From Escherichia coli (GTDB lineage: Bacteria > Pseudomonadota > Gammaproteobacteria > Enterobacterales > Enterobacteriaceae), in assembly GCF_022846255.1 (NCBI RefSeq), contig NZ_AP025682.1: a stretch of 64,000 bases of DNA. One strand, written 5' to 3'. Under the pieces are notes generated by a model that saw only the letters and a program-made list of their open reading frames with translations, was not told the origin of the DNA and ran no database searches. Of the stretch, positions 17,341 through 50,311 are shown one piece after another (within the stretch, counting starts at the first letter, position 1; each line of letters opens with the position of its first letter). The translations under genes and the position numbers were made by a program.

Positions 17341-17367
17341 CCCCCTCATGATGAGGGGGCTTTTTTT
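17341..17367 (+). terminator. intrinsic terminator after yehA (CCCCCTCATGATGAGGGGG + T7)
   Basis: Perfect GC hairpin followed by TTTTTTT; the rcnB stop codon (17366-17368, minus) lies within the T-tract. Confidence 0.6.
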
Positions 17368-17704
17368 AGCGATGATAAAAAATCTCACCGTCGTAGGCTT
17401 TAATGATTTTACCGTCGGTGTCGCTGATCAACACGTACGCGCCACCCATATAGGTCCAGTGCGTCCCGGCATCAGGCGCGGGCAGGTTACGTAACTGCCA
17501 CTGCTTAATGTTGTACTCATCGGTACGGTACATTTCTGGTACGGTGTCACCTGGTTTGAAATGCTTAAAGTCAGCAATGAAACTGCTTAACTCATACTTA
17601 GAAATTCCCGAGGTATTGGTCGAACCCGCGGTGGCTGGTGCGGCCCAGGCGGCACTGGTAACCAGCAAAAGCGCACCCAGCAACATCTTATTTTTAATGG
17701 TCAT
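17366..17704 (-). CDS. rcnB: periplasmic Ni/Co homeostasis protein RcnB
   Basis: 112-aa product starting MTIKNKMLLGALLLVTSAAWA (signal peptide); the longer 172-aa ORF in the track is an upstream extension. Confidence 0.9.
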   Translation of the reverse strand: MTIKNKMLLGALLLVTSAAWAAPATAGSTNTSGISKYELSSFIADFKHFKPGDTVPEMYRTDEYNIKQWQLRNLPAPDAGTHWTYMGGAYVLISDTDGKIIKAYDGEIFYHR

Positions 17705-17922
17705 AAACTCTCCACTTTGGGGATCTGTAATATCAGTCGCATATCTTTCCTGCCATACAATATAACTGACAAGCGATATTTTGTTAGTGATCCCATGATT
17801 TCGTAAAAAGTGTAAATGAAAGGATGCCCTAAAAGCATCCTTAGCGAGCAGAGAGTCAGCGGAAATAGCTGATTTAAGAATCATCCTGGGCTGAAGATAA
17901 CATGCAAGCCTAAAGGATTGAG

Positions 17923-18747
17923 TTATCGCATTATGCCCATGAAGCCATGTACGCCCATATACACACCAACTAAGCCAATCAACAGACTGGAAAAATAGGG
18001 AGCGCGTTTAGCGAGAGTGTTAAATCCGCTCCAGCGTTTTGCGACCTGCTGAACGCTGATTGCTGCGCCAACGCCTACGGTGACAAGCGTTAACGCCAGG
18101 CCGAGGCTGAAACTGACGACCAGTGTTGCGCCCAGTGTCAGGGCTTTCAACTGAATGCAAATCAACAGCACGGTAATTGCTGCCGGGCAGGGGATAAGGC
18201 CACCGGTTAAGCCAAATAGCAAAATTTGCCAGTTGGTGACCTCTCTACCATCAAAGCGTCGTTTAATGTCATTGGCATGGGCTCGTGCATGGGCATCCTG
18301 ATACTCGCCATGTTCGTGATGGTGATGATGTCCATGGTCGTGGTGATCTTCGTGATCGTGGTGATGATGCTCATGATCATGCTCGTGCATATTCTCCAGC
18401 CAGTTGCGTTCGCCGCGCCAGGTACGCCAGAACATCCAGAACGCGGTGCTAATAATGATCACTGCGGAAATCAACTGGAGCCACGGTTCTGCTGATTGAG
18501 CAGTAAAGCGTTTGCTGATCACCATCCCGCCAAAGGCAATTAACCAGACCACTGCGGTATGCGAAATAGTTGCTGCCAGTCCGAGCATCACCGCCTGTTT
18601 AATGGTGCCTTTGATGGCGATGATAAACGCCGCCATCATCGCTTTTGAGTGCCCCGGTTCCAGGCCATGAAGCGCACCAAGTAAGATGGCGCTGGGGATG
18701 AAGAACCAGGCGTTTCCTTGCTGAAGAAGTGTTGTAAATTCGGTCAT
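17923..18747 (-). CDS. rcnA: nickel/cobalt efflux transporter RcnA
   Basis: 274 aa membrane protein with a His-rich loop (HEHDHEHHHHDHEDHHDHGHHHHHEH). Confidence 0.95.
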   Translation of the reverse strand: MTEFTTLLQQGNAWFFIPSAILLGALHGLEPGHSKAMMAAFIIAIKGTIKQAVMLGLAATISHTAVVWLIAFGGMVISKRFTAQSAEPWLQLISAVIIISTAFWMFWRTWRGERNWLENMHEHDHEHHHHDHEDHHDHGHHHHHEHGEYQDAHARAHANDIKRRFDGREVTNWQILLFGLTGGLIPCPAAITVLLICIQLKALTLGATLVVSFSLGLALTLVTVGVGAAISVQQVAKRWSGFNTLAKRAPYFSSLLIGLVGVYMGVHGFMGIMR

Positions 18748-18784
18748 GATAATAATTCTTAGTATTAATTCGGCAATCTGATTC

Positions 18785-18819
18785 TACTCCCCCCCAGTAC
18801 CTGATACTACCCCCCAGTA
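18785..18819. promoter_or_regulatory. two RcnR operator sites (TACT-G6/C7-N-AGTA type) in the rcnR-rcnA intergenic region
   Basis: TACTCCCCCCCAGTA (18785-18799) and TACTACCCCCCAGTA (18805-18819), matching the published RcnR G-tract operator pattern. Confidence 0.7.
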
Positions 18820-18867
18820 GATTAATAGTGCTATGATTTTTCATATTCTTGTTAACCAGGTGTTGCC

Positions 18868-19140
18868 ATGTCTCATACAATCCGTGATAAACAGAAACTG
18901 AAAGCGCGTGCCAGTAAGATTCAGGGCCAGGTCGTGGCGCTCAAGAAAATGCTCGACGAGCCGCACGAATGCGCTGCAGTTTTACAACAGATTGCTGCTA
19001 TCCGTGGCGCGGTGAACGGTCTGATGCGGGAAGTGATTAAAGGTCATCTGACGGAACACATCGTTCACCAGGGGGATGAGCTAAAACGTGAAGAAGATCT
19101 GGATGTCGTTCTGAAGGTGCTGGATTCATATATCAAATAA
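18868..19140 (+). CDS. rcnR: Ni/Co-responsive repressor RcnR (CsoR/RcnR family)
   Basis: 90 aa, [29 protein letters not shown]; divergent from rcnA. Confidence 0.95.
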
Positions 19141-19229
19141 TTTATTAACGCGATTGTAAAACTGCCGTTTTTCCTCGTTTACAACGCGTGCGCTGGACAT
19201 TACCATCCTCCTTTGCGATTTATCATCGC

Positions 19230-19360
19230 AACCAAACGACTCGGGGTGCCCTTCTGCGTGAAGGCTGAGAAATACCCGTATCACCTGATCTGGATAATGC
19301 CAGCGTAGGGAAGTCACGGACCACCAGGTCATTGCTTCTTCACGTTATGGCAGGAGCAAA
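19230..19360 (+). promoter_or_regulatory. TPP (thiamine pyrophosphate) riboswitch in the thiM leader
   Basis: CGACTCGGGGTGCCCTTCTGCGTGAAGGCTGAGAAATACCCGTATCACCTGATCTGGATAATGCCAGCGTAGGGAAGTCACGG matches the thiM aptamer (thi-box CUGAGA ... ACCUGAUCUGGAUAAUGCCAGCGUAGGGAA); the AGGAG SD just before the ATG is sequestered by the expression platform. Confidence 0.9.
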
Positions 19361-19362
19361 CT

Positions 19363-35498: not shown

Positions 35499-35585
35499 AA
35501 AAAATAAGCCCGTGTAAGGGAGATTACACAGGCTAAGGAGGTGGTTCCTGGTACAGCTAGCATTTTATGGGTTATGTTTTTCAGC
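35499..35585 (-). ncRNA. cyaR: CyaR (RyeE) Hfq-dependent sRNA
   Basis: Minus strand reads GCTGAAAAACATAACCCATAAAATGCTAGCTGTACCAGGAACCACCTCCTTAGCCTGTGTAATCTCCCTTACACGGGCTTATTTTTT, matching CyaR including the terminator hairpin and U-tract. Confidence 0.85.
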
Positions 35586-35669
35586 GAAACGGATGATAAC
35601 CTTAATAAATGCAGCTGTATGTGATCGGTTTCTAAGAATTTTCCATCCGGGAAAAATAATCGAAATTAA

Positions 35670-49663: not shown

Positions 49664-49805
49664 CGGAAAAGCCCCTCCCGAGGAAGGGGCCTTAAATAAG
49701 GAAAGGGTCATGATGAAGTGGATCATCATCGTGGTGCTCTTAGTGATTAGCTACCCAGCATACTAAGACTACCAGGGCGGGGGAAACCCCGCTCTACCCT
49801 CACTC
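49664..49805 (-). ncRNA. Sib-family antisense sRNA (antitoxin RNA); boundaries approximate
   Basis: Antisense to the ibs ORF; minus-strand terminator hairpin CCCCTTCC-TC-GGGAGGGG followed by CTTTTCC at about 49664-49690. The 5' end is estimated from the usual Sib length of about 140 nt. Confidence 0.45.
49710..49766 (+). CDS. Ibs-family type I toxin, 18 aa (MMKWIIIVVLLVISYPAY)
   Basis: Short hydrophobic ORF with SD AAGGAAAGGG; Ibs family signature MMK...LLVIS..AY. A or B assignment not attempted. Confidence 0.7.
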   Translation: MMKWIIIVVLLVISYPAY

Positions 49806-49991
49806 CTGAAAGTATGCCTTCACGGTCCAATTGTCAATCCGCAGACTTTGCAGTCTGCGATCCTGCCAGCAAATATTCTTTGCGAGTCGTTACGCAATAA
49901 TCACACTTGAAACTATTTTATCCGCAAGTCAGCGATAGACTGCATACAGGGCGAAAGGAGGTAAGCCGAAGATTTCAGCGGGACGCTGAAA

Positions 49992-50133
49992 CGGGAAAGC
50001 CCCTCCCGAGGAAGGGGCCTTAAATAAGGAAAGGGTCATGATGAAGCTACTCATCATCGTGGTGCTCTTAGTCATTAGCTGGCCAGCTTACTAAGACTAC
50101 CAGGGCGGGGGAAACCCCGCTCTACCCTCACTC
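49992..50133 (-). ncRNA. Sib-family antisense sRNA, second copy; boundaries approximate
   Basis: Same hairpin and terminator, offset by about 328 bp from copy 1. Confidence 0.45.
50038..50094 (+). CDS. Ibs-family type I toxin, 18 aa (MMKLLIIVVLLVISWPAY)
   Basis: Second copy within repeat unit 2; same SD and context. Confidence 0.7.
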   Translation: MMKLLIIVVLLVISWPAY

Positions 50134-50311
50134 CTGAAATTATGTCACTCCGCCCTTAGTGTCAATCGACGGCTCTCCGTTCTTGCGAGGCGAATAGCAA
50201 AATTTTCTGCGCCGCCGGGCCTAATTCTGAAAGTTTCTTCGTTTGCTCTTATTTCATTATTGCAATCGGTATGATACCGGACCTCAATAATTCTCTAAGA
50301 AAGGATTTCTT

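Follow-up and report, generated by a model that had tools for sequence, protein, structure and literature searches.

Within the 64-kb stretch of Escherichia coli DNA that was analysed (referred to throughout as the window), the divergent genes rcnA and rcnR are separated by an intergenic gap of 120 bp (18748..18867). The rcnR gene (18868..19140, plus strand) encodes a Ni(II)/Co(II)-responsive repressor of the CsoR/RcnR family, matching NCBIfam NF011613 and Pfam PF02583, and its repressed target rcnA (17923..18747, minus strand) encodes a Ni/Co efflux permease containing a histidine-rich loop, matching NCBIfam NF007454 and Pfam NicO. Downstream of rcnA lies the periplasmic accessory gene rcnB (17366..17704, minus strand; Pfam RcnB PF11776, 68 bits; RefSeq annotation). 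A first-pass annotation of this DNA had placed a pair of RcnR operator sites between divergent rcnR and rcnA genes, and both gene calls are confirmed: RcnR scores 197 bits against the NCBIfam RcnR equivalog model NF011613 (cut-off 138), RcnA scores 559 bits against the nickel/cobalt efflux transporter subfamily model NF007454, and RefSeq names both genes in the same way in matching E. coli genomes. In addition, the translation of rcnR carries His3, Cys35, His60 and His64, which make up the H-C-H-H metal-ligand motif, a signature that sets RcnR apart from FrmR and CsoR (PMC11672702).

In the case of rcnB, an open reading frame of 172 amino acids (17366..17884, minus strand) can be drawn from an upstream ATG, as against the 112-amino-acid RefSeq product (17366..17704). 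The Pfam RcnB domain falls inside the RefSeq-annotated part, and the longer frame is probably an artefact of start-codon choice. The RcnA protein is identical to K-12 RcnA at 269 of 274 residues, the differences being at positions 36, 122, 125, 134 and 215, and three of these (G122E, Y125H and H134D) sit in the histidine-rich loop. The length of rcnA in RefSeq is 810 bp in strain WW2 and 852 bp in O157 NE 1092-2, as compared with 825 bp here, and the histidine-rich loop appears to be a variable region of the protein.

On the other side of the locus, rcnR is followed by a TPP riboswitch upstream of thiM (19232..19328, plus strand; Rfam RF00059, 71 bits), and then by thiM-thiD. The thiMD start reported for K-12 at 2185450 (PMC6131387) corresponds to window position 19214, 8 nucleotides past a TTTACA-17-TACCAT promoter match at 19178..19206. 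K-12 long-read data also include a transcript described as 'novel' that runs from the rcnR start through rcnR-thiM-thiD (PMC6131387; window 18845..~20948), and no terminator-like hairpin was found after rcnR in the intergenic region 19141..19362. Together, the transcript and the lack of such a hairpin are suggestive of read-through, whereby a Ni/Co-responsive promoter may extend transcription through the TPP riboswitch into the thiamine salvage genes. Elsewhere in the window are two tandem Sib antitoxin sRNA genes (49695..49837 and 50023..50165, minus strand; Rfam RF00113, 137 and 141 bits) and the CyaR sRNA gene (35502..35587, minus strand; Rfam RF00112, 101 bits), which are ordinary E. coli features.

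The tandem operator and its counterpart in K-12

The rcnA-rcnR intergenic region holds two exact matches to the pattern TACT-G6-N-AGTA, spanning 35 bp (18785..18819) as the first-pass annotation had proposed. Both G-tracts belong to the strand that is sense for rcnA, the minus strand; this adds to the earlier description, which gave no strand. Read on this strand, the order is TACTGGGGGGTAGTA (site A, rcnR-proximal, 18805..18819), the spacer TCAGG (18800..18804), and TACTGGGGGGGAGTA (site B, rcnA-proximal, 18785..18799). On the plus strand, the same element reads TACTCCCCCCCAGTA-CCTGA-TACTACCCCCCAGTA, with the C-tracts on that strand. In site B the variable base N is a G, making the tract effectively G7. 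The spacer is 5 bp by direct reading, rather than the 6 bp given in the first-pass annotation, and the centres of the two sites are thus 20 bp apart.

Over 136 bp across the rcnA-rcnR intergenic region, the sequence is identical at 136 of 136 positions to that of E. coli K-12 MG1655 (NC_000913.3, 2185789..2185924), and the match to the published operator that had been claimed from the pattern is borne out accordingly. With window positions converted by the relation K12 = 2204664 - window position, site B corresponds to K-12 2185865..2185879 and site A to K-12 2185845..2185859, both identical. The RcnR protein is likewise identical to K-12 RcnR (90 of 90 residues). The two loci therefore share the same element, repressor, gene order and orientation, with no difference in the operator, and differ in the neighbouring RcnA at the 5 of 274 residues noted above.

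Since both the intergenic region and RcnR are identical to those of K-12, the published K-12 biochemistry applies directly. PMC3902906 describes the tandem RcnR operator as two type-1 TACT-G6-N-AGTA sites and gives a tetramer-to-site stoichiometry of 1:1 for RcnR, with minor-groove contacts at TACT/AGTA and a G-tract of A-form character. Binding by apo-RcnR and release by Ni(II) or Co(II) are reported in PMC7055735, PMC7105576 and PMC3902906 for the identical K-12 sequence, and repression of both rcnA and rcnR from the shared operator is credited to Blaha et al. 2011 (Biochimie 93:434). The operator is also portable: Co(II)/Ni(II) frees it from RcnR, and when it is placed downstream of a foreign promoter it confers cobalt-inducible expression (PMC7105576). 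At the Salmonella rcnA operator-promoter, the affinity of Zn(II)-RcnR is lower than that of apo-RcnR by a factor of at least 90 (Osman et al., PMC5709419). The element at 18785..18819 is thus the known and characterised RcnR operator, to which published work assigns RcnR as the binder, and gel-shift and footprinting studies of this very sequence have already appeared. Iwig and Chivers are also said to have found, in 2009, that the flanking DNA wraps around RcnR.

RcnR is closely related to FrmR, and the high similarity of the two has been described (PMC11672702). Given that the protein adjacent to the operator also matches the FrmR model, at 76.5 bits, the chief binder could in principle be the paralogue FrmR or some other CsoR-family protein in place of RcnR. 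That score, however, is below the FrmR cut-off of 133 bits, whereas the same regulator exceeds the RcnR cut-off (197 versus 138 bits), and its ligand set is the H-C-H-H of RcnR and not the P-C-H-x of FrmR (motif: PMC11672702). The assignment of the operator to RcnR in published work, and the position of the tandem beside rcnR and/or rcnA in every one of the 78 species considered below, also weigh against a different chief binder, and we regard it as highly improbable.

The type-2 operators of CsoR, for instance that of Streptomyces lividans CsoR (PMC3902906), serve repressors of the same fold family. Common to both kinds of site are G/C-tract pseudopalindromes with AT-rich, GTA-containing arms, and a proposed recognition of (A-form) DNA shape. 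The CsoR type-2 sites, however, have two short G/C tracts 2-4 bases apart, with arms about 11 bp apart and two tetramers per site (PMC3902906), whereas the sites here have a single unbroken tract of G6-7, arms 7 bp apart and, reportedly, one tetramer per site. Sites A and B thus fall outside the definition of a CsoR type-2 operator.

Divergent promoters and a proposed mechanism of repression

For rcnR, the transcription start site can be placed at 18845 (an A on the plus strand, 23 nucleotides before the ATG) by mapping over the K-12 position 2185819, a SMRT-Cappable-seq start on the reverse strand of NC_000913.3 for the transcript b2105|b2104|b2103 (PMC6131387, supplementary file 4). A promoter scan identified an extended -10 element, TGcTATGAT (18829..18837, plus strand), 8 nucleotides upstream of the mapped K-12 start, and the two bases of its TG are 85% and 68% conserved across species. 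Relative to 18845, site A occupies -40..-26 and site B -60..-46. Such a placement agrees with autorepression in which the -35 region of the rcnR promoter is blocked.

A second hexamer, TAGATT (18818..18823), was considered as the main rcnR -10 in this strain and rejected, as the start at 18845 fits the extended -10 element at 18829..18837. TAGATT mirrors the TAGAAT on the rcnA side (see below) and matches the AGTA-GAA consensus seen across species; it could represent a secondary rcnR promoter, or one that is used in other species.

The candidate rcnA -10 element is TAGAAT (18781..18786, minus strand), a 5/6 match to TATAAT that overlaps the outer AGTA arm of site B. Across 77 loci, the four bases past site B are conserved at frequencies of 0.79 (G), 0.69 (A), 0.84 (A) and 1.00 (T), and positions further out are unconserved. 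We infer that TAGAAT is the likely rcnA -10, composed of the TA of the AGTA arm and the conserved GAAT. In this arrangement a weak rcnA -35 region would fall in site A, in agreement with the description of native PrcnA as weak (PMC7105576), and the rcnA start would be predicted about 7 nucleotides past TAGAAT, near 18774 (K-12 2185890). Among the entries listed in the SMRT-Cappable-seq tables of PMC6131387 there is no start for rcnA (b2106), which is what one would expect of a gene under repression; nor does the rcnA-rcnR locus appear in the Cappable-seq supplement of PMC4782308. A generic scan offered another rcnA promoter, TTGCCG-16-TATTAT (18776..18749), that was rejected, given that its -10 ends 2 nucleotides before the ATG, its start would lie inside the coding sequence, and its positions are unconserved across species.

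Taken together, these observations favour an account in which the divergent rcnA(-rcnB) and rcnR promoters share 18785..18819 as their operator, bound by apo-RcnR and freed by Ni(II)/Co(II), and we place the probability of this account as a whole at roughly 97%. Metal-free RcnR, a tetramer, would bind with one tetramer on each 15-bp TACT-G6-N-AGTA site, touching the inverted TACT/AGTA arms and recognising the unbroken G/C tract by its unusual, A-form-like shape. In this account, RcnR binding and its stoichiometry, the minor-groove contacts, release by metal and autoregulation come from the literature. The present analysis supplies the existence of the sites, their departure from chance expectation, their identity with K-12, their conservation across genera and their position relative to the mapped rcnR start.

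From the centre-to-centre distance of 20 bp, we infer that both sites point to about the same side of the helix. On the DNA, RcnR would cover the rcnR -35 region and, given the assignment of TAGAAT, probably the rcnA -10 as well. RcnR lying over elements of both promoters would block RNA polymerase at each of them, with the result that the exporter genes and rcnR itself are repressed. When RcnR acquires Ni(II) or Co(II), its affinity for DNA would be lowered and the promoters freed, allowing transcription of rcnAB and rcnR. Nothing in the data contradicts this account.

Conservation of the sites across species

Homopolymer tracts as such are not rare, the window holding six other G/C runs of at least six bases. 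Nothing speaks in favour of the view that the two motifs are functionless chance pseudo-palindromes in AT-rich intergenic DNA. Sites A and B are the sole matches to the pattern in the 64-kb window, even when up to two mismatches are allowed, a threshold at which shuffled sequence would yield 0.19 matches. From base composition, the expectation per window is 4.9e-4 exact single sites, and 5.9e-11 same-strand tandem pairs within 30 bp.

A survey of one genome per species for the exact tandem, allowing gaps of 1-30 bp, recovered it in 78 species-representative genomes. In all 78 loci the tandem is adjoined by RcnR and/or RcnA (tblastn), and in most loci where one of the two is missing, the fetched locus stops short of it. 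Within the Enterobacterales, the genera represented are Escherichia, Citrobacter, Salmonella, Enterobacter, Klebsiella, Raoultella, Kosakonia, Rahnella, Hafnia, Serratia, Tatumella, Erwinia, Cedecea, Buttiauxella and Yokenella, and outside of these the tandem is found in Vibrio, Shewanella and Chromobacterium. The orientation is constant, the G6-T site always being the one nearer to rcnR and the G7 site the one nearer to rcnA; N is T at site A in every locus, and the G6/G7 tract lengths do not change from genus to genus. The spacer sequence, by comparison, varies freely, and the flanks are unconserved past a few bases. Recurrence of the exact tandem beside rcnR and/or rcnA in 78 species, despite variable spacers and flanks, refutes a chance origin, which we consider vanishingly improbable. 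In sequence comparison, this is the clean phylogenetic footprint that a protein-binding site leaves.

Individual loci illustrate the same pattern. In Salmonella enterica subsp. diarizonae, both sites and the 5-bp gap are present beside an RcnR that is 94% identical, whereas the spacer is TTACA in place of TCAGG and the flanks have diverged. The Salmonella rcnA operator-promoter for which binding data exist (PMC5709419) pairs an orthologous repressor with an orthologous tandem site. On an IncHI2 plasmid that encodes an RcnR of 92% identity, both sites and the 5-bp gap are kept while the surrounding DNA has diverged. In Ralstonia, where the homologue is 62% identical, one site is clear and the second degenerate.

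Of the 78 loci, 61 have a 5-bp gap between the sites and 16 a 6-bp gap (L015, L017, L043, L048, L049, L051-L053, L055, L062, L064, L067, L075, L081, L085 and L080). The 6-bp form accompanies a distinct RcnR lineage of only 58-64% identity, found in Enterobacter, Klebsiella, Lelliottia and Chromobacterium. Escherichia sp. MOD1-EC7003 (L080) departs from this rule, its RcnR being 100% identical and yet the gap 6 bp; on the strength of this locus, a one-base change in the phasing of the sites seems to be tolerated by RcnR. The remaining locus, from Vibrio diabolicus, has a gap of 24 bp that encloses a third, slightly imperfect site.

In three Shewanella loci (L008, L030 and L031), the tandem lies between an rcnR of 67-68% identity and a gene without similarity to RcnA. 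In L008, from an uncultured Shewanella sp. and the one locus of the three that was inspected, this gene (631..1137) encodes a predicted membrane protein of 116 amino acids for which no significant Pfam family was found, GlpM appearing below threshold only, and the outer arm of the operator is fused to TATGAT. The L008 gene may be a different effector under RcnR control.

Within E. coli, the rcnA-rcnR region is single-copy in 5,361 of 5,426 complete genomes, and a 45-bp core is preserved exactly in no fewer than 4819 of the 5426. This constancy bears on whether the G-tracts could act, not as a protein operator, but as a slippage-prone, phase-variable switch, or as a G-quadruplex or i-motif. Length variants of the site B tract do occur, rarely, for instance G8 in PE15 and G6 in RM10809-3 and O111 8E. 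However, the annotation of rcnA as frameshifted in PE15 suggests a homopolymer sequencing error there, and some of the rare G6/G8 variants may be errors of this kind. An exact core in so many genomes indicates that the tracts are stable, contradicting phase variation, and their fixed length across genera is as expected of a protein site that is read by shape. An intramolecular G-quadruplex, for its part, is defined by at least four G-tracts on one strand within a short span, whereas the intergenic region has two only, and the element falls outside that definition. Such a switch or DNA structure is accordingly very unlikely, and an operator for RcnR remains the preferred reading.

Three-site alleles and the meaning of the operator

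The window carries the standard two-site allele, but three-site alleles of the operator, of two independent kinds, occur in at least 6 of the 5,426 complete E. coli genomes. Alleles of the form A-A-B, arising from a 20-bp duplication, are evident by alignment in O157:H7 NE 1092-2, EC26 and O111:H8 8E, and in N39 and N47 the same form is deduced from identical BLAST scores only. An A-B-B allele with a 23-bp tandem duplication is present in the wastewater-sludge strain WW2 (L003, NZ_CP081881.1). Besides L003, three-site alleles of this set are represented by the loci L086 (NZ_CP038328.1), L087 (NZ_CP077465.1) and L088 (NZ_CP060880.1). The Vibrio diabolicus genome described above also carries three sites. 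A synthetic one-site query aimed at E. coli alleles with a 20-bp deletion matched the standard alleles, which each aligned as two segments and shared the best score.

The operator is a 20-bp direct repeat and is thus prone to slipped-strand duplication. The differing lineages and types of duplication suggest recurrent slippage on this repeat. Operator copy number might serve as a natural tuning knob for metal efflux, acting through the strength of repression or the threshold of induction by Ni/Co, a tentative idea that we consider rather less than likely. If true, it would concern genomes other than this one, and it presupposes that the three-site alleles are real and alter function.

As a discovery, the element at 18785..18819 carries little weight, being an operator that is already known, from the most thoroughly studied of bacteria, and is identical to that of the reference strain, and the three-site alleles, the only mildly new item, are located outside the window. 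What the analysis does illustrate is that a real operator is recognisable from raw sequence alone. The phylogenetic footprint also summarises the architecture of the element, namely fixed sites in a fixed orientation, a gap of 5 or 6 bp, and an outer arm that runs into a -10-like hexamer. Such a conserved architecture could guide the design of biosensors built on RcnR and its operator.
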